A DNA stretch of 40,029 nt from an uncultured Bacilli bacterium (GTDB taxonomy: Bacteria; Bacillota_I; Bacilli_A; RF39; UBA660). The position numbers were made by a program, and so were the translations under genes. The stretch lies in NCBI GenBank assembly GCA_944350145.1, contig CALVOC010000001.1:1-40029 (forward strand). The letters run 5' to 3'. Below are positions 9,731 to 29,886 of the stretch, piece after piece (within the stretch, counting starts at the first letter, position 1; the number at the start of each line of letters is the position of its first letter). The notes under the pieces were generated by a model. It ran no database searches. It had not been told where the DNA came from and saw only the letters and a program-made list of their open reading frames with translations.

Positions 9731-10396
9731 TTGAAGTATATGAGAATTGCGTTGATAAACGAAAATAGTCAAAAAAAGAAAAATGCGTTTATTTTAGATG
9801 TTTTAGAGAGAGTTGCTATTAAATATGGCCATCAAGTTTTTAATTATGGTGTTAGTGAAGATAAAGATTCTTCAATCGATTATGTTGGAGCTGGATTATT
9901 AGCAGGTATATTGTTAAATAGTCATGCAGTTGATTTTGTGATTACAGGTTGCTCAAGTGGTGAAGGTGTTTTATTAAGTGCAAATGCCATGCCTAATGTT
10001 TACTGTGGCTATATCGGAGATTTAGTCGATGCCAAACTTTTTAATAAAATTAATGGAGGTAATGCTGTATCTATTCCTTTTGGAAAATATTTTGGAACAG
10101 GTGCTGAGTTTTTCTTAGAAAGTATTTTTGAGGCTTTATTTACAACGGAAATGGCAACAGGCTATCCGAGTGAACGAAAGAAGATTCAGGATGCTCAGAG
10201 AAAATGCTTGGAAGAAGTGAAACGTACTTCACAAATTAATATGACTGAAATATTAGAAGAAGTAGATAAAGATTTACTTTATAATATCATTCATAATGAA
10301 TACTTTGAAGAGAATTTTTTTCAATATTCTAGAGATGATGAAATTAGTGAAATTATGAAAGATTTATTCGATGCTTGGATAGATTCTACTTTTTAA
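9731..10396 (+). CDS. RpiB/LacA/LacB-family sugar-phosphate isomerase-like protein with C-terminal extension
   Basis: MRIALINE..., and VDFVITGCSSGEGVLLSANAMPNVYCGY resembles the RpiB active-site segment (GxxxCGTGxGxSIAANK). Alternative start ATG 9740. Confidence 0.6.
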   Translation: MKYMRIALINENSQKKKNAFILDVLERVAIKYGHQVFNYGVSEDKDSSIDYVGAGLLAGILLNSHAVDFVITGCSSGEGVLLSANAMPNVYCGYIGDLVDAKLFNKINGGNAVSIPFGKYFGTGAEFFLESIFEALFTTEMATGYPSERKKIQDAQRKCLEEVKRTSQINMTEILEEVDKDLLYNIIHNEYFEENFFQYSRDDEISEIMKDLFDAWIDSTF

Positions 10397-22971: not shown

Positions 22972-23038
22972 ATGATTTGATACAATAAGATAAGAATGAA
23001 AATAGAGAAGAATTCCATATTAATAGTAGGTGTTATTC

Positions 23039-25324
23039 ATGAAAAAAATCATTTTAAGTATAATTTTCACTTTTGTTTTGGGAATATGTATTTTATTTAT
23101 GTTTGATCAAAAAGCAAAGGATCTTTCTTTTCATATGGATTCTATAGAACTAGCCATTTATTTAAATGATGAAAAAACTAGCACTATACCTTCAAAGACT
23201 AGTGGGTACTATTATGACCGAGAAAAAACAAGTTGTACCAATGGGGCTTATATTAATTGGGATAGTATTACATGGAGTCCAGTGGTAAATAATGTAACAA
23301 GTTATCCGACAAGATGTGAAATTTTTTTTACGACAACCTATACTGAGGGGATACTAAATGGAATGGATCCTGTGTTAAAAGATGAATTAGTGCCTGTAAC
23401 TATAGATAATAATGGAACAGTTAAAAAAGCCGATTTGGAAAGCAAATGGTATAGTTATGAAGAAAAAAAATGGGCGAATGCTGTTGTTTTAAAAGAGTAT
23501 GATTTATATGATTTATCTAGTAATCATTTTAATGGAAAGCTTATGAATGGAGCGACAATTGTTACGGATAGTTCTGGTAAAAAAGCTATTTCTTTTGATG
23601 GAGTAGATGATTATGTAGATATTGTAGATATTCCAAATACTGTAAATTTTGAAGGTGGATTTACAGTAGAGTTTGAAGCTGTATGGGAAACATTTCATAA
23701 TTTTTCAAGAATCTTTGATTTTAGTGATGAGAAACTTAATTATCAAATTTTTGTTTCAAATAATTATGATAATGGTGATTTTTTAATTGGTGGAAGAATG
23801 GGCGATAAAGCAGATAGTAGCTTAAATACAACGATTACTAATCAAATCAGTTTAAATCAAAAAGCACAGTACAAGTTTGAGTACGTGAAAGAAAATAGTC
23901 AGAATGTTTTAAAATATTATAAAAATGGAAGTTTAATTCAAACAATAAATAAGGGAACATTGAGCAATAAAAATACTTTATATACAAATAATTATTTAGG
24001 AAGAAGTGCGTGGGATGGAAATCCAGGTTCTTTAGATGAATATTTTGATGGCTTGATTTATTCTATAAAAATTACAGATTCTAGTGGAACTCCTATATTG
24101 TGGTATGATTTAAATAATGAGAATACATTAAAAGCTTATACTTATCAAGAAAGTGAGATTATACCAGAAAGTGCTATAGAATCTTATTTTGTATGGATAC
24201 CTAAATATCGTTATCAATTATGGGATCTTGGTAATTATGATAGTTTAACTAGTATAAATACTTCAAAAGTCCATGAAATTCCTATTATTTTTGGAGATTA
24301 TGATACCAGTGATAGTAAAGAAGGAGAATGTACGACTCCGATGAAATCTGGAGAAAGTGGAAATTGTAAAGTAGGAGACTACATGACTCATCCGGCATTT
24401 ATAAGTATTCCAAGTACAGGATTTTGGGTTGGAAAATTTGAAACTGGATATGATGGAGCAACTACAAAAGGAGAAGCTGAACAAAATGTAAATGATTCAA
24501 GTAAAGTCATTATAAAACCAAATGTATATAGTTGGCGAGGAATACAAGTAGCCAATGCTTTTTATACAAGTTACAATTATAAAAGAAACTTAGATAGTCA
24601 TATGATGAAGAATACGGAGTGGGGAGCGGTTGCTTATTTACAGCATAGCAAATATGGATCGAGTTCTAGTGTAAGGATTAATAACGATAAGGATCAAAAA
24701 ACTGGTTTAGCGGCGATTAATGAACCGACGTGTAATTATACTACTACAAATGAATCTTGTAATATTTATTGTACAGATGGCACTTGCAATACTGCTTATC
24801 CTAATAGTGTTTTTGCAAGTACTACTAATAATATAAGTGGGATTTTTGATATGAGTGGAGGAGCCTGGGATTATGTGATGGGAGTTTTAGTGGATGAAGA
24901 TGGTCGTTTAGTAACCGGCAAAAATAGTAAGGATCATTCTGGATTTAATGGTGTTTTTGGGTGCCCTACATGCGACAATGATACAAGTGGATTAACTGAA
25001 TTAACAAATGGGTACGATTGGCCAGAGGAAAAATATTATGATAAATATGTTTATAGTATTTCCAGAGAGGAATATTTTAGAAGAATATTAGGAGATGCAA
25101 CTGCTGAGGCCGGTCCTGGGGGAACTAAAACATATAATGGCCATTTGCGGATGGTTGGAAGTTGGTATGATGATAGTTACTATATGGTTTATAATGAAGC
25201 TTCTTTCTTTTGGCGAGGTGGAGAAAGTGATCATGGAACAGATGCTGGTATATTTTCTAGTGCTTATAGGCAAGGCATTACTAATATCGGTGGAGCCTTT
25301 CGAATTATTCTTACTCCAGTCTAG
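23039..25324 (+). CDS. secreted/membrane-anchored LamG (concanavalin-like) plus FGE-sulfatase/C-type-lectin-like domain protein
   Basis: N-terminal hydrophobic segment. ISFDGVDDYVDI...FTVEFEAVWE..RIFDF (LamG_3-like). C-terminal MKNTEWGAVAYL, GIFDMSGGAWDYV and GGAFRII resemble the SUMF1/FGE fold (tEaEWeyAar, GlyDMsGNvwEW, GFR). Confidence 0.65.
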   Translation: MKKIILSIIFTFVLGICILFMFDQKAKDLSFHMDSIELAIYLNDEKTSTIPSKTSGYYYDREKTSCTNGAYINWDSITWSPVVNNVTSYPTRCEIFFTTTYTEGILNGMDPVLKDELVPVTIDNNGTVKKADLESKWYSYEEKKWANAVVLKEYDLYDLSSNHFNGKLMNGATIVTDSSGKKAISFDGVDDYVDIVDIPNTVNFEGGFTVEFEAVWETFHNFSRIFDFSDEKLNYQIFVSNNYDNGDFLIGGRMGDKADSSLNTTITNQISLNQKAQYKFEYVKENSQNVLKYYKNGSLIQTINKGTLSNKNTLYTNNYLGRSAWDGNPGSLDEYFDGLIYSIKITDSSGTPILWYDLNNENTLKAYTYQESEIIPESAIESYFVWIPKYRYQLWDLGNYDSLTSINTSKVHEIPIIFGDYDTSDSKEGECTTPMKSGESGNCKVGDYMTHPAFISIPSTGFWVGKFETGYDGATTKGEAEQNVNDSSKVIIKPNVYSWRGIQVANAFYTSYNYKRNLDSHMMKNTEWGAVAYLQHSKYGSSSSVRINNDKDQKTGLAAINEPTCNYTTTNESCNIYCTDGTCNTAYPNSVFASTTNNISGIFDMSGGAWDYVMGVLVDEDGRLVTGKNSKDHSGFNGVFGCPTCDNDTSGLTELTNGYDWPEEKYYDKYVYSISREEYFRRILGDATAEAGPGGTKTYNGHLRMVGSWYDDSYYMVYNEASFFWRGGESDHGTDAGIFSSAYRQGITNIGGAFRIILTPV

Positions 25325-25376: not shown

Positions 25377-26003
25377 TTAAAAAGTTCGGTATAAGCCAAT
25401 TGCTTTTCCTAAAATAGTTACATTTTTAAAAATGAAAGGGGCCATGGTATCATTTTCTGGTTGTAAGCGAATGTGGTCATCTTCTTTATAAAAGGTTTTT
25501 AGAGTAACTTCGTTTTCTTCAGTCATAGCTACTACAATATCGCCGTTGCGAGCTGTGTTTTGACGTTTGACAATTACATAATCTCCATCATAAATTCCTT
25601 TATTGATCATAGATTCACCACTTACTTCTAAAGTGAAAACTGTTTCATTTTGGGGAATTATAGATGCTGGAAGATTAAAATATTCGTTTGGTCTTTCGAT
25701 TGCTTCAATTGGATTTCCTGCTGTAATTTTTCCAAGTAAAGGAACTTTTACAACATCTTCATCTTGTTCTAAGTATTCGTTATCTACAAGAAGTTCAATT
25801 GTGCGAAATTTATTGCTGGAATTTTTAATTACACCAGCTTCTTTTAATTTATTTAGATGAGCTTGAACCGTTGCAGGGCTTGATAAACCTAGTGCTTGGC
25901 CAATTTCTCTTACAGCTGGAGGATATCCATGTTTTGCAGTATATTTTTTTATATAATCTAAAACGGCGGTTTGCTTTTTTGTCAATTCTTTCTTCTCTTT
26001 CAT
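25377..26003 (-). CDS. lexA: LexA repressor
   Basis: wHTH segment AVREIGQALGLSSPATVQAHLNKLKEAGVI, cleavage site ITAG|NP, catalytic SGESM and the TLK Lys. Confidence 0.95.
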   Translation of the reverse strand: MKEKKELTKKQTAVLDYIKKYTAKHGYPPAVREIGQALGLSSPATVQAHLNKLKEAGVIKNSSNKFRTIELLVDNEYLEQDEDVVKVPLLGKITAGNPIEAIERPNEYFNLPASIIPQNETVFTLEVSGESMINKGIYDGDYVIVKRQNTARNGDIVVAMTEENEVTLKTFYKEDDHIRLQPENDTMAPFIFKNVTILGKAIGLYRTF

Positions 26004-26039
26004 TTCTTAAAATCACTCTCCATAATCATCTTAGCATAG

Positions 26040-26100
26040 GTAATGTAAAATGTCAAACAATTGTTCTTTTCTTTATTGACACGAACAAATGTATTATGGT
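26040..26100. promoter_or_regulatory. divergent SOS control region: two LexA (Cheo-type) boxes overlapping back-to-back promoters
   Basis: Box 1 is cAAACaattGTTCt (26053-26066). It overlaps the lexA promoter -35 on the minus strand (TTGACA-17 nt-TAAGAT). Box 2 is CGAACaaatGTatt (26081-26094). It sits directly after the plus-strand TTGACA (26075-26080), within the spacer before TGgTAAGAT. Confidence 0.7.
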
Positions 26101-26125
26101 AAGATTTATTTGGAAAGAGGGAGTT

Positions 26126-26269
26126 ATGATGGAAAAATTTTTGAAAAGATATGGAATTATTGTTTTACTTTATTTAGTAATTATTTGTGGAGTTCTTCTT
26201 TTAAACGAACGAATAAGATTGCTTAATGAGGTAGAAACAACTAAGGTGGTTCAATATTCGGCAAATTAA
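26126..26269 (+). CDS. 47-aa single-TM protein divergent from lexA (candidate SOS cell-division inhibitor, YneA/SosA-like by position)
   Basis: AGAGGGAG RBS. Product MMEKFLKRYGIIVLLYLVIICGVLLLNERIRLLNEVETTKVVQYSAN. A LexA-boxed promoter lies upstream. The remainder of the 132-aa ORF-track entry is antisense to lexA. Confidence 0.6.
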   Translation: MMEKFLKRYGIIVLLYLVIICGVLLLNERIRLLNEVETTKVVQYSAN

Positions 26270-26337
26270 TTTTTTTCTTTTATTTACTCTAATCAAAAAA
26301 TTTGATATACTTCTATATAGAATAAAGGAGTGAAATC

Positions 26338-28317
26338 ATGAATCAAAGTGATATTCTAGCAGTGAATGAATTAAAGATTTTGTCTTTAGATATTATTGAT
26401 AAAGCGGGAAGTGGAAATCCTGGAATTTGTATGGATATGAGTGCAGTAATGTATACGTTATTTGCGAAAGTTTTAAATGTTTATCCTAAAAATCCTACTT
26501 TTTTTAATCGCGATCGAGTTATTTTATCTTCAGCACATATTTCTCCGTTATATTATGCAATGCTTTATATGGCTGGATATCCTTTAAATAAAGAAGATTT
26601 AATGAATTTTCGTCGACTTAATTCTAGTACTCCAGGAATGCCTGAATTAAACAATCCAGCTGGTGTTGATGCATCTACTGGTGTTGCTGGAGGTGGCGTA
26701 GGTGTTGCTGTTGGGTGTGCTCTTGCCAGAAGATACCTTAATTCTTTAATTCAAAAAGAAGATGAGAAGTTAAATCTTTTAAATTTCACAACATTTTGCT
26801 TTGTAAGTGATGCTGACATGATGAGTGGTGCTTCTGAAGAAGCTTTTAGTTTTGCTGGTGTTCAAAATATAGAAAATTTGATTTTTTTGTATGATGCAAA
26901 TCAAATGACAGCAGAAGGAAGTTTAGAACAAGTATTTCATGAGGATCTTGTAAAAAAATTTCAAAACAAGGGTTTTTATGTTGATTCGTTAAAAGATTCA
27001 GAAAATGTTAAAGAAATCGCTAAGGCGATTGAAGCTGCTAAACGTTCTAAAAAACCTGCATTGATTTTGTTTAAAAATATTATTGGAAAAGGCTCATTTA
27101 ATGAAGGAAAAAATATTGTTCATTCTGGTGTGTTATCTTTTGATGATATTTCCTCTTTAAAAAGAAAGTATAATATATTTTTGCCTCCTTTTGAAATTTC
27201 TAAAGATTCTATTTTACATATTGCAACTCAAATTCAAGAACGTACTGGAAAAATTGAAAAGAAATTTAATGAAATGTTTTCAAGAGCTCAAAATATAAAT
27301 AGTCCATTTTTAAATGGAATTATCCAATTACTTTCAAATGGCAATTTTGTTAGCGATTTTGATTCGGCAAATTATAAAATTAATGATGGGTATCGAGAGC
27401 CTCTTATTGAATCTAATTATAAAATTATGAATTTAATTGCTCCAAGAACGAATTTTTTCATTGGAGGTAGTGCTGGGCTTAGTTTATCTTGTCAGACTTT
27501 ACTTGGTGGGGCTGTTTATATGGATCAAAAGAATCCAACTGCGAAAAATATTCGCTTTGGAATTCGAGAAGAAGCTATGTCTTATATTTTAAATGGAATG
27601 AGTTTGCTTGGTTTAAGAGTATTTGGGTCTACTAAACTTTGTTTTGCTGATGAGTTAAAAAGCGGAATGCGTCTTAGTGCTCTTATGAATATGCCTGTTA
27701 CATATATTTTTACGCACGATAGTATTTATAATAGTGAGGAAGGACCTGTACGCATTCCCATTGAGCAATTAGCTATGATGCGTAGTATTCCAAATTTTGT
27801 TGTGTATCGTCCTGCCGATATTATGGAACTTATGGGAACATGGGAAGCTATTTTGCAAAATTGTAAGCCTTGTGCTCTTGTTATAAGTACAAATAGTATT
27901 CCTAAATTGCCTGGTTCAAATGCTAAAGAAGTGAAAAAAGGTGCTTATATTATAAAACCGGAAGTATCTCGTTTGGATGGCATTTTGATTGCAACTGGAA
28001 GTGAAGTAGTAAGTGCTATGCAAATTGCTTTTGATCTACAAAAAAATGGTTTGGATTTGCGGGTTGTTTCGATGCCTTCTATGGATACTTTCTTAACAAT
28101 GGGAGTAACTTATGAAGAACAAATCTTGCCTAAAAATGTTAAGACCGCGGTGATTGAAGCTGGTAGTAGTTTTGGATGGCATCGCTTTGCAACTAATGAT
28201 GATTTTATTTTGAATATTTCTGATTTTGCTTATTCGGGATATCCATTAGAAGTACTTCAGAAAATGGAATTTGATTATGATAGTTTAAAGATGAAAATAG
28301 AAAGTTTAATGAAATAA
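26338..28317 (+). CDS. tkt: transketolase homologue with degenerate active-site and ThDP motifs
   Basis: Collinear with my recollection of bacterial Tkt over its full length (659 aa): NRDR.ILS, GVDASTG, FGIRE.AM, PVTYIFTHDSI, RPAD, ATGSEV, VVSMPS. However SGHPG is SGNPG, TPGHPE is TPGMPE, GDGxxMEG is SDADMMSG, GEDGPTH is SEEGPVR and (S/T)RQN is STNS. Confidence 0.85.
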   Translation: MNQSDILAVNELKILSLDIIDKAGSGNPGICMDMSAVMYTLFAKVLNVYPKNPTFFNRDRVILSSAHISPLYYAMLYMAGYPLNKEDLMNFRRLNSSTPGMPELNNPAGVDASTGVAGGGVGVAVGCALARRYLNSLIQKEDEKLNLLNFTTFCFVSDADMMSGASEEAFSFAGVQNIENLIFLYDANQMTAEGSLEQVFHEDLVKKFQNKGFYVDSLKDSENVKEIAKAIEAAKRSKKPALILFKNIIGKGSFNEGKNIVHSGVLSFDDISSLKRKYNIFLPPFEISKDSILHIATQIQERTGKIEKKFNEMFSRAQNINSPFLNGIIQLLSNGNFVSDFDSANYKINDGYREPLIESNYKIMNLIAPRTNFFIGGSAGLSLSCQTLLGGAVYMDQKNPTAKNIRFGIREEAMSYILNGMSLLGLRVFGSTKLCFADELKSGMRLSALMNMPVTYIFTHDSIYNSEEGPVRIPIEQLAMMRSIPNFVVYRPADIMELMGTWEAILQNCKPCALVISTNSIPKLPGSNAKEVKKGAYIIKPEVSRLDGILIATGSEVVSAMQIAFDLQKNGLDLRVVSMPSMDTFLTMGVTYEEQILPKNVKTAVIEAGSSFGWHRFATNDDFILNISDFAYSGYPLEVLQKMEFDYDSLKMKIESLMK

Positions 28318-28369: not shown

Positions 28370-28795
28370 ATGCGTGTTTTTTATATTTTTCAAATAAAGA
28401 AAGATTTAACTAAGATTACAAAAGAAAATCCTTATACATTATTTCATACGTTGGAAACGATTTATTATCGTGAACCAGATGACATTAAATTGGGATATGT
28501 TTTTTTAAAACAAATTATTGATCCTATACCTATCAAAGAATTAGATGTTCTTTTATTTAAAAGGTATAAAGAAAATTATTTTTATATGAAATATCGAAAT
28601 ATTCATAGTATGCATGATGTTTATCGTAAAGAAAATACCGTTTTAACTTTAAATAAAACTTATTTAAAGTTAGAAACGAATGTTATTAAGCCTAGATTTT
28701 TAGAAGAGTTGCAAAAAAATCACAGTTTATTTGTCTGTGATTTTCAAGAAAAAGATTATTTTTGGTTAGATTCTTTAGAACCATTGCCCATATAA
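28370..28795 (+). CDS. sirA: SirA (YneE)-like sporulation inhibitor of replication
   Basis: 141 aa. MRVFYIFQIKKDL..., IIDPIPI and FVCDFQEKDYFWL parallel B. subtilis SirA as I recall it (MERHYYTYLIKEEF, ITQPIPI, FLAMDFNSKRYGWL). Same position after tkt as in B. subtilis. Confidence 0.55.
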   Translation: MRVFYIFQIKKDLTKITKENPYTLFHTLETIYYREPDDIKLGYVFLKQIIDPIPIKELDVLLFKRYKENYFYMKYRNIHSMHDVYRKENTVLTLNKTYLKLETNVIKPRFLEELQKNHSLFVCDFQEKDYFWLDSLEPLPI

Positions 28796-29886
28796 ATAAT
28801 GGGTTTATTTTGTTTATCGAATAAAGAAGACTTAGAATGAGTGAGTAAATCATAAATTAAAGCAGCCTTTTTTTCTTCTTGATATATTACATCGTCTTTT
28901 AAAACTGCCGTCGGAAGAGTAAATGTCTTTTTCTTTTCCTTTAAATATTGTTTTCCTTTTAATGAAAAGCCAAGTATATGAATGTAAGAGATAGAAATGT
29001 GGGCTTTTTCTTTTGTATGGCCAAGTAAAATATGCATTAACATTCTTCTTAGACGATTGTAGGTATATCGTTTGCTTTTTAATAATGTTAAAAGTTCGTT
29101 AAAAGAATTTGCTTTTGTAATTTCTTTTTTTAATTTGTAATCTAAACCTTCTGTTACATCGATGTAAAGATCTAAGTGTTCATCGGTTAGAATACGATAT
29201 TTCAATAGTTCAAATAGTTTTTGGGTATCTATTGCTTGCCAACTTTCTAAAGATTTGGAAGGTAAGTATGCACTTATATCTTCCATTTTTTCTTTTTTTG
29301 CACGAATGTTTGTTGCACTTATAACGGATTCGCAAGAGGTTGTATCGTGGTAGTCATTTGTTCTTTTTATTGTTTCGATTTCTATTTTATAATGATTTTT
29401 TAAAATTGCTTTGCAATAACTTATTCCAAGAAGATCGTTTGGAGGTAGGGTAGTGTCTAGTTGTAAAGATTGATTAATTCTTTTAGGATAATTGAGATTT
29501 TTTTGAGAATTATTTAAAATAAATTCGCTTTTCACTTGTTCAGAAGCCAATTTCCATAGCATTTCTTTATTGTTTGATTCACTTCCAAAAATTAAAATTT
29601 CAACTTTTAAAGCATTTAATAAAAAAAGACTTTTCTCAGCAAAGGTATCTGCTGATTGAGTTCCGAATAGTGCTGGTAATTCTACTACTATATCCACTTT
29701 ATTTTCTAAAGCCAATTTTGTTTTATCTTCTTTCGATAAAACACTAATTTCGCCTCGTTCTAAAAAATATCCATTTAAAATTAATATAAGCAAAGAGTCT
29801 GGATACTTTTTTTTGATTTCGTTTATATGATATATATGACCGTTGTGAAACGGGTTATATTCAGCAATTATTCCAATGATTTTCAT
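28756..29886 (-). CDS. tmcAL: tRNA(Met) cytidine acetate ligase (YlbM/UPF0348 nucleotidyltransferase)
   Basis: MKIIGIIAEYNPFHNGHIYH (HIGH-like motif). AAAGGAGA RBS 5 nt before ATG 29886. Divergent from yceD-rpmF as in B. subtilis. Confidence 0.8.
   Translation of the reverse strand: MKIIGIIAEYNPFHNGHIYHINEIKKKYPDSLLILILNGYFLERGEISVLSKEDKTKLALENKVDIVVELPALFGTQSADTFAEKSLFLLNALKVEILIFGSESNNKEMLWKLASEQVKSEFILNNSQKNLNYPKRINQSLQLDTTLPPNDLLGISYCKAILKNHYKIEIETIKRTNDYHDTTSCESVISATNIRAKKEKMEDISAYLPSKSLESWQAIDTQKLFELLKYRILTDEHLDLYIDVTEGLDYKLKKEITKANSFNELLTLLKSKRYTYNRLRRMLMHILLGHTKEKAHISISYIHILGFSLKGKQYLKEKKKTFTLPTAVLKDDVIYQEEKKAALIYDLLTHSKSSLFDKQNKPIIYMGNGSKESNQK

Follow-up and report, generated by a model that had tools for sequence, protein, structure and literature searches.

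Transketolase derivatives with damaged active sites are known from mammals, where the catalysis of TKTL1 and TKTL2 is disputed and both are retained by selection; TKTL1 has a 38-residue deletion and is a paralogue that coexists with a functional TKT. Among bacteria, second functions have been hinted at for Escherichia coli TktA, namely MarR binding and chromosome-topology phenotypes. A full-text literature search returned neither a bacterial transketolase pseudoenzyme nor the pathway layout of RF39-like Bacilli that includes phosphoketolase. Here we analyse a 40,029 nucleotide stretch of DNA (hereafter the window; GenBank assembly GCA_944350145.1, contig CALVOC010000001.1) from an uncultured bacterium of the chicken gut (Bacilli; GTDB lineage RF39; UBA660), represented by a 1.15 Mb metagenome-assembled genome that is 73% complete and has 29% GC. 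An open reading frame (ORF) at 26338..28317 (+) encodes a transketolase homologue in which substrate residues are replaced, the cofactor anchor is kept and purifying selection persists, and which may be retained as a cofactor-binding pseudoenzyme or scaffold.

Substrate residues are replaced and cofactor ligands are kept

The 659-aa product of this ORF is a full-length tkt homologue, with the Pfam domains Transketolase_N (PF00456, 1.4e-79), Transket_pyr (PF02779) and Transketolase_C_1 (PF22613) arranged end to end. Solved Gram-positive transketolases match it at E values of 1e-128 to 1e-120 (HMMER), the best over residues 7-654, which bears out an earlier description of the protein, made from the letters alone (the first-pass annotation), as collinear with bacterial Tkt. 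Identity to canonical bacterial transketolases is 31-36%, and the score against TIGR00232, the NCBI transketolase equivalog, is 557 bits, under the cut-off of 682 (682.25), although some residue-canonical relatives scoring 600-680 bits also fall below 682. Other thiamine diphosphate (ThDP) families are far weaker (DXS 29.7 bits, AceE 28 bits), and assignments as DXS, pyruvate dehydrogenase E1 or phosphoketolase were rejected because transketolase is the best profile; a separate bona fide phosphoketolase (Xfp) gene is present at G000:C16, where G000 is the window's own genome.

For the motif comparison, 8R3R and 3HYL were aligned to the window protein with HMMER and E. coli TktA (NC_000913.3) with MAFFT; reference residues follow TktA numbering, from which that of the window protein differs by a few positions. 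The alignments agree and contain no indels near any motif, and all seven motif changes listed in the first-pass annotation proved real. In the N-terminal part SGHPG is replaced by SGNPG, TPGHPE by TPGMPE, TTGPLGQG by STGVAGGG and GDGxxMEG by SDADMMSG, while further along GGSADL is replaced by GGSAGL, GEDGPTHxP by SEEGPVRIP and (S/T)RQN by STNS. Further changes are Arg358 to Ile357, Phe434 to Lys433, Tyr440 to Glu439, Leu116 to Ala117 and Glu160 to Ser163. The alignments were also checked for catalytic His and Arg residues conserved at shifted positions, and none was rescued; in particular, Arg353 of a 'GYRE' motif was rejected as a displaced Arg358, as sister clades that retain Arg358 also have Arg353.

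Residue classes and roles were taken from the L. salivarius transketolase structure paper (PMC4601599), and frequencies are given for the window clade, which comprises 78 distinct intact orthologues (656-664 aa, down to 58% identity). By these classes the protein has lost three of the seven substrate residues outright (His, Arg, Arg), and a fourth has changed conservatively (Asp to Glu). The donor-handling histidines His26, His100 and His473 have become Asn27 (26416..26418, +; N32/S27/Y11/H4/R4 of 78), Met101 (26638..26640, +; L/I/M/T in the clade) and Arg472 (R/K in 70/78). At the site that binds the substrate phosphate both Arg358 and Arg520 are gone, the first replaced by Ile357 (27406..27408, +; hydrophobic in 77/78) and the second by Thr518 (27889..27891, +; K44/T17/R15), while Ser384 and His460 are kept. 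Asp381 is replaced by Gly380, and Asp469, a residue for stereo-recognition of the substrate hydroxyl, is conservatively replaced by Glu468 (E54/D19). Four of the seven pyrimidine-pocket residues are likewise replaced, by Ala117 (from Leu), Lys433 (from Phe), Glu439 (from Tyr) and Arg472 (from His); among Gly114, Leu116, Phe434, Phe437, Tyr440 and His473, only Gly115 and Phe436 are kept. The Lys433...Phe436...Glu439 segment of this pocket lies at 27634..27654 (+), with Glu439 present in 70/78 sequences, and THDS followed by SEEGPVRIP lies at 27712..27753 (+).

The residues that are intact in E. coli numbering are His66, Asp155, Asn185, His261, Ser385, Glu411, Phe437 and His461, so that the diphosphate and metal ligands of the window protein (Asp158, Asn188, His67 and His262) are all in place. 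In the ThDP-Mg box S-D158-A...N188 (26809..26901, +) both metal ligands are kept (Asp 71/78, Asn 77/78), and the changes to the GDG-X26-N motif concern its flanking glycines (S-D-A), of which the Gly to Ala position acts via the backbone. His262, equivalent to His261 (27121..27123, +), binds both diphosphate and donor substrate and is kept in 74/78. The cofactor-activating Glu411 of GIREEAM (27568..27570, +; E66 and D6 of 78) and His460 of THDS (76/78) are retained, as had been claimed. As judged from these alignments, the cofactor-anchoring site has suffered far less change than the substrate site. The initial statement that most catalytic and ThDP motifs are substituted was therefore right for the catalytic and substrate residues and overstated for ThDP, where conservation extends to the activating Glu and the Mg-diphosphate ligands.

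The homologue is under purifying selection and is predicted to keep its fold

One orthologue each was found in 22 of the 24 other genomes of the genus (58-93% identity, no stops), the two genomes without a match being only 66-67% complete. No second or split tkt was found in the window's own genome or in the 22 genus genomes, a check proposed in the first-pass annotation, and split N-terminal tkt copies are confined to other genera of the order. A search of the whole database with the tkt-like protein gave a graded series of homologues.

The substitutions are common to the whole genus, and the ratio of non-synonymous to synonymous substitution rates (dN/dS, Nei-Gojobori) is 0.039-0.12 in the closest pairs (0.054 at dS 0.68 for the window versus locus L003), so a pseudogene was rejected. 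For comparison, values at the same loci are 0.09-0.12 for tmcAL, 0.02-0.03 for lexA and 0.016-0.06 for the SirA-like gene. Between G000 and another genome of the genus, G019, the tkt-like proteins are 61% identical, a value between those of Rpe (51%) and Xfp (72%), and the constraint is as strong as that on the canonical-like Tkt of the sibling genus g80. In the most degenerate lineages (g53, g30) dS is saturated, and the apparent dN/dS of 0.3-0.5 tells only that the ratio is below 1.

An AlphaFold2 model built from an 83-sequence alignment (predicted local distance difference test 94.1, predicted template modelling score 0.93) was matched by Foldseek to the Gram-positive transketolases 8R3P, 3M49 and 8R3R with template modelling scores of 0.95-0.96 and a root-mean-square deviation of 1.9 Å; the complete three-domain fold is thus predicted to be kept. 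Column entropy, calculated over 72-78 distinct clade sequences with a mean of 1.05 bits, is above this mean at the positions of His26 (1.94), His100 (1.93), Ser385 (2.89), Phe434 (2.26), Arg358 (1.36) and Arg520 (1.42). Asp155 (71/78), Asn185 (77/78), His261 (74/78), Glu165 (78/78) and His461 (76/78) are near-fixed, and several replacements are themselves fixed in the clade: His473 to Arg/Lys (70/78), Tyr440 to Glu (70/78), Leu116 to Ala (71/78) and Glu160 to Ser (65/78). From this pattern the sugar-phosphate channel appears to have been released and the Mg-diphosphate anchor held, with the pyrimidine pocket remodelled.

At least 10 studies have the window stretch in their chicken-gut metagenomes, and it is therefore not an assembly artefact. 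Weak evidence of expression comes from two contigs of ~230 nt, from two chicken-gut metatranscriptomes, that lie inside the tkt-like ORF with 0-1 mismatches.

Decay or loss of tkt is confined to genomes with phosphoketolase

An even set of 151 genomes of the order, nearly all from one family, ~1 Mb in size and at least 92% complete, was classified by TIGR00232 score. At or above 682 bits stand 91 genomes, of which 34 encode Xfp and 57 do not, and a further 18 genomes score 600-682 bits (12 with Xfp, 6 without), this intermediate group being residue-canonical where inspected, for example in g80. All 16 genomes with a degenerate tkt (<600 bits) and all 26 without a match encode Xfp. Loss or decay of tkt was thus seen only where phosphoketolase is present: 42/42 genomes with degenerate or absent tkt carry Xfp versus 46/109 of the remainder, whose tkt is good (Fisher p = 9e-13 per genome, uncorrected for phylogeny), or 26/26 versus 27/60 at genus level (p = 1.4e-7, likewise uncorrected).

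The degenerate group consists of the window genus, g53, g30, g58 and g86, plus members of g69, g93 and g43. In g53, g30 and g58 even Glu411, Asn185, His261 and THDS are lost, and the ORFs are still 640-660 aa long; g63/g93 likewise have full-length ORFs despite the loss of Glu411, Asn185 and THDS. Asp155, His261 and Glu411 are also lost in a subclade (P0045/49/53/54) inside the window clade. The Tkt homologues of g53, g30 and g58 score 300-400 bits and lie at G142:C13:26665-28596, G128:C8:32849-34747 and G107:C3:65879-67750, respectively, and loci L043-L046, L059 and L060 hold full-length homologues from these genera with nearly all cofactor and catalytic motifs gone.

In a maximum-likelihood tree the Tkt proteins of the family are monophyletic. 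The window clade (clade A) is sister to clade B with a support of 100, and A and B together are nested in a grade, clade C, in which all histidines are present and Arg520 is replaced by Lys, with P0092-type sequences also having R358I. Sequences of g30, g63 with g93, g53 with g58, and g69 are placed apart. This topology implies that tkt degeneration arose at least four times independently, and that the phosphate site was lost first in the A/B lineage. Four states of the sole tkt orthologue exist within one family: canonical genes, genes that lack the phosphate site, genes that lack the catalytic histidines, and a state in which the cofactor site or the gene itself has gone.

Clade C (P0092-P0120; loci L212-L215) is the stem of the degenerate clades and retains all histidines and ThDP residues, with Arg520 to Lys and, in some members, Arg358 to Ile or Asn; its transketolases may be active with altered phosphate recognition. 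Some genera with a canonical tkt encode an extra 282-aa ORF corresponding to the N-terminal transketolase half only, as in a split-type subunit (G134:C2:40983-41750, G168:C21:10319-11083 and G185:C1:37290-38066, the last with an internal TAA).

Pentose phosphate metabolism of the genus

Among 41 genomes of the window genus, Rpe was found in 39, RpiB in 40 and an Xfp of ~788 aa (E ~1e-170) in 38, and Xfp is present in 88 of the 151 genomes of the order. Transaldolase was found in 0/41 genus genomes and 6-phosphogluconate dehydrogenase in 0/151 genomes of the order. For a closer view of pentose sources, G019 and G109, a relative that lacks tkt, were rebuilt from fetched regions. G109 retains Rpe, RpiB and Xfp and encodes DeoA/B/C/D, so nucleoside ribose feeds its pentose branch. 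In G000 and G019, tblastn searches with E. coli DeoA/B/C, XylB, AraA/B/D, UlaA/D/E/F and RbsB/D gave no match; of these two genomes only G019 encodes DeoD, a purine nucleoside phosphorylase, and it does so without DeoB. Both carry a ribokinase-like PfkB kinase (68% identical between them) that is absent from G109; the kinase scores best against the ribokinase model TIGR02152 (110 bits; cut-off 300), with weaker matches to ribose-1-phosphate kinases. Taken together, the data indicate, in place of a non-oxidative pentose phosphate pathway, a branch of RpiB, Rpe and phosphoketolase that is fed by salvage.

No TPK_catalytic domain (thiamine pyrophosphokinase) was found in the 41 genus genomes. ThDP is evidently available in the genus, since nearly every genome encodes the ThDP-dependent Xfp and a PFOR-like protein that needs the same cofactor.

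Several further observations concern these genes. The phosphoketolase and tkt-like genes are separated by only 3-5 kb in several species of the genus (G019:C1:92673-101424, G006:C22 and G021:C21); in G019 a GH30 glycosidase gene and mscL lie between them, and in the window genome the two are on different contigs. The PfkB kinase gene (G000:C13:3674-4645 and G019:C1:71290-72261) is conserved in the genus and adjoins that for pyruvate phosphate dikinase. At 9731-10396 the window encodes a 221-aa protein whose N-terminal domain is LacAB_rpiB-like (55 bits), and nearly all genomes of the genus have, in addition to the normal 150-aa RpiB, a similar second PF02502 match of ~210-250 aa.

Candidate roles for the transketolase homologue

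We propose that this family of gut Bacilli with ~1 Mb genomes gained or kept phosphoketolase, so that RpiB, Rpe and Xfp could carry pentose phosphates into glycolysis and acetyl-phosphate with no need of transketolase. The catalytic function of transketolase would then have escaped selection: some genera would have deleted tkt, while in others, including that of the window, the phosphate residues (Arg358, Arg520) and donor residues (His26, His100, His473, Asp381) would have been replaced and would now be drifting. Canonical sugar-phosphate transketolase activity is inferred to be gone or negligible, because both phosphate arginines, three histidines and Asp381 were lost together. Each such single loss costs 10- to 100-fold or more in mutagenesis of the yeast and E. 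coli enzymes, and the Foldseek matches include PDB entries 1AY0, 5I51, 5I5G and 5HGX, which are structures of such mutants. We further infer that the role for which the ORF is maintained is independent of transketolase chemistry, because lineages that lack the whole cofactor site also keep the ORF. Binding of ThDP, or of a similar diphosphate ligand, through Asp158, Asn188, His67, His262 and Glu411 probably persists in the protein of the window genus, because the Mg-diphosphate ligands and Glu411 are still under selection. Three traits expected of a pseudoenzyme are seen: residues for the ancestral reaction are lost, selection is purifying and the predicted fold is intact. We place a probability of about 0.5, from sequence comparison, on retention of the protein for a non-transketolase role, as a cofactor-binding pseudoenzyme or a scaffold. 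The first-pass suggestion of a pseudoenzyme or new activity, unlikely to be a canonical transketolase, gains support from the alignments, the lack of a second tkt, the genus-wide substitutions and the score below cut-off.

Several findings weigh against this reading. Selection on Glu411 and on all Mg-diphosphate ligands is what would be expected of a working ThDP enzyme and not of a dead one. Given that an oxidative branch (0/151) and transaldolase are missing, and that the two genus genomes searched have no phosphopentomutase, xylulokinase or arabinose/ascorbate route, a weak transketolase could still supply pentose phosphates anabolically; the only alternative pentose source found is the divergent PfkB kinase (110 versus 300 bits). 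The metabolic argument thus fits both a 'dead' transketolase and one that is weak but needed. The statistic associating tkt decay with Xfp ignores phylogeny. Finally, a partnership of the scaffold with the adjacent SirA-like protein, tried because the tkt-sirA adjacency is conserved, is unsupported: a search profile built from 12 SirA-like proteins found members in 126/151 genomes, including 22 of the 26 without tkt, and in g30 the SirA-like gene is unlinked from the degenerate tkt.

Alternatively, the protein could be a neofunctionalised ThDP enzyme acting on small or non-phosphorylated substrates, such as glycolaldehyde, hydroxypyruvate or free ketoses. The clade-wide conservation of Asp155, Asn185, His66, His261, Glu411 and His461 and the fixation of new active-site residues (Arg/Lys at 473, Glu at 440, Ala at 116, Ser at 160) would fit such an enzyme, and the order of events in the tree, which starts with loss of the phosphate site (R520K in clade C, also R358I in P0092) while the histidines are intact, resembles a change of specificity first. 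Positions 26, 100, 385 and 434 have not been re-fixed, however, and have ~2 bits of entropy, clade B and a subclade of clade A have lost cofactor ligands and still kept the ORF, and no conserved neighbouring transporter or pathway gene hints at a substrate. We consider a new ThDP activity doubtful, if still a serious candidate.

A slow transketolase, whose efficiency residues have decayed around a minimal ThDP core that suffices for a low anabolic flux to ribose-5-phosphate, is unlikely. It would explain why the ThDP core is conserved in the sole tkt of genome and genus under a constraint equal to that on the canonical-like Tkt of g80, and it accords with the presence of Rpe and RpiB (39/41 and 40/41), the absence of 6-phosphogluconate dehydrogenase and the lack of DeoB in G000 and G019. 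It is difficult to reconcile with the joint loss of at least six residues, both phosphate-binding arginines among them, and with the 26/151 relatives that live without tkt, and ribose-5-phosphate could come from the ribokinase-like kinase that the genus conserves.

It is similarly unlikely, from the residue pattern, that the scaffold has been converted to a binder or enzyme for another ligand, in which the anchor and Glu411 would be kept, the pocket would be re-lined by the conserved charged residues Lys433, Glu439 and Arg472 and the sugar-phosphate channel would be left to drift. If so, it would be a new cofactor- or metabolite-sensing protein or ThDP-type catalyst, born once phosphoketolase made transketolase redundant and kept genus-wide. 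Decay without function, or an assembly artefact, would account for the variable catalytic positions and for the dispensability of tkt in relatives, but is highly improbable given a dN/dS of 0.04-0.12, 78 intact orthologues in a 29% GC setting, a confident fold, the same sequence in many independent metagenomes and the two metatranscriptome contigs, themselves weak evidence, inside the ORF.

Public records call the degenerate proteins 'transketolase' (P0081, for example), so metabolic reconstructions of these abundant uncultured small-genome gut Bacilli would wrongly credit them with a non-oxidative pentose phosphate pathway. A dead or repurposed sole-copy tkt under strong selection would also imply a second function of the transketolase scaffold, and the degenerate proteins would let that function be studied free of catalysis.

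Genomic context and other features of the window

The tkt-like ORF is preceded by a strong Shine-Dalgarno sequence, AAAGGAG (26324..26330, +), 7 nt 5' of its ATG, so the ORF and ribosome binding site are both intact, as first described, and by a promoter-like site, TTTACT-17-TATACT (26283..26311, +), identified by consensus match only. On the other side of this region lexA (25377..26003, -; LexA_DNA_bind and Peptidase_S24) is divergent from the tkt side, and between them a 47-aa membrane protein is encoded (26126..26269, +) in the slot of a B. subtilis SOS gene. A SirA-like ORF of 141 aa (28370..28795, +) begins 52 nt 3' of the tkt-like gene, with which it is probably co-transcribed, and is followed by a terminator-like hairpin (28786-28804); its Pfam SirA score of 26.0 bits is exactly at the cut-off. 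The conserved position between lexA and sirA was thus recovered, and the window locus shares the B. subtilis-type order lexA / small ORF / tkt / sirA. Because it occupies the same slot as in Bacillus, the window gene is a true orthologue of tkt. The clade C locus has lexA / small ORF / tkt / SirA-like / YneF-like in the same slot, and in locus L214 the small ORF is a similar one of 46 aa. No conserved neighbour of the tkt-like gene pointing to a function was found at the loci compared.

The 47-aa ORF sits behind back-to-back promoter-like sites (region 26028-26269) and is a possible SOS-induced small protein. An exact LexA box (GAAC-N4-GTTC) is absent from the whole window; imperfect words only, AAACAATTGTTC at 26055-26066 and CGAACAAATGTAT at 26082-26094, are found at the divergent promoters. 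The SirA-like protein is very strongly conserved (dN/dS 0.016-0.06) and its gene usually comes right after tkt, often followed by a YneF-like gene. An inhibitor of DnaA specific to sporulation would be unexpected in these presumably non-sporulating gut Bacilli of ~1 Mb. Elsewhere in the window (23030-25324), a 764-aa secreted or membrane-anchored protein without a Pfam match contains a central segment (MKSGESGNCKVGDYMTHPAFISIPS...) that is repeated in a 320-aa ORF on a different contig of the same genome (C12:20037-20999).

Comparison with known systems

The canonical transketolases (E. coli TktA; 8R3R, 3M49, 8R3P and 4C7V) share with the window protein its locus, length, three domains, Asp/Asn ligands, His66 and His261, Glu411 and THDS. 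They differ at His26, His100, His473, Arg358, Arg520, Asp381, Phe434, Tyr440, Leu116 and Glu160, all replaced here, and, unlike the canonical enzyme, the window clade scores below the equivalog cut-off and its substrate positions evolve freely. The sibling degenerate proteins (clade B/g86, g53, g30, g58 and g63/g93) are likewise full length, at the same locus and in phosphoketolase-positive genomes, but have decayed further (Asn185 to Thr, His261 to Tyr, with Glu411 and THDS also missing from g53, g30 and g58), whereas the window genus keeps its anchoring residues.

In metabolic layout the genus resembles heterofermentative lactic acid bacteria and bifidobacteria, with which it has Xfp, Rpe and RpiB in common and in which Xfp is likewise a transketolase-independent exit. 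These organisms normally keep a working transketolase and/or an oxidative branch, whereas here neither 6-phosphogluconate dehydrogenase nor transaldolase is present and tkt is degenerate or lost. For the protein itself the closest known analogy is mammalian TKTL1, a comparison limited by the different route taken, as here the sole orthologue of a bacterium is affected, and by point substitutions only.

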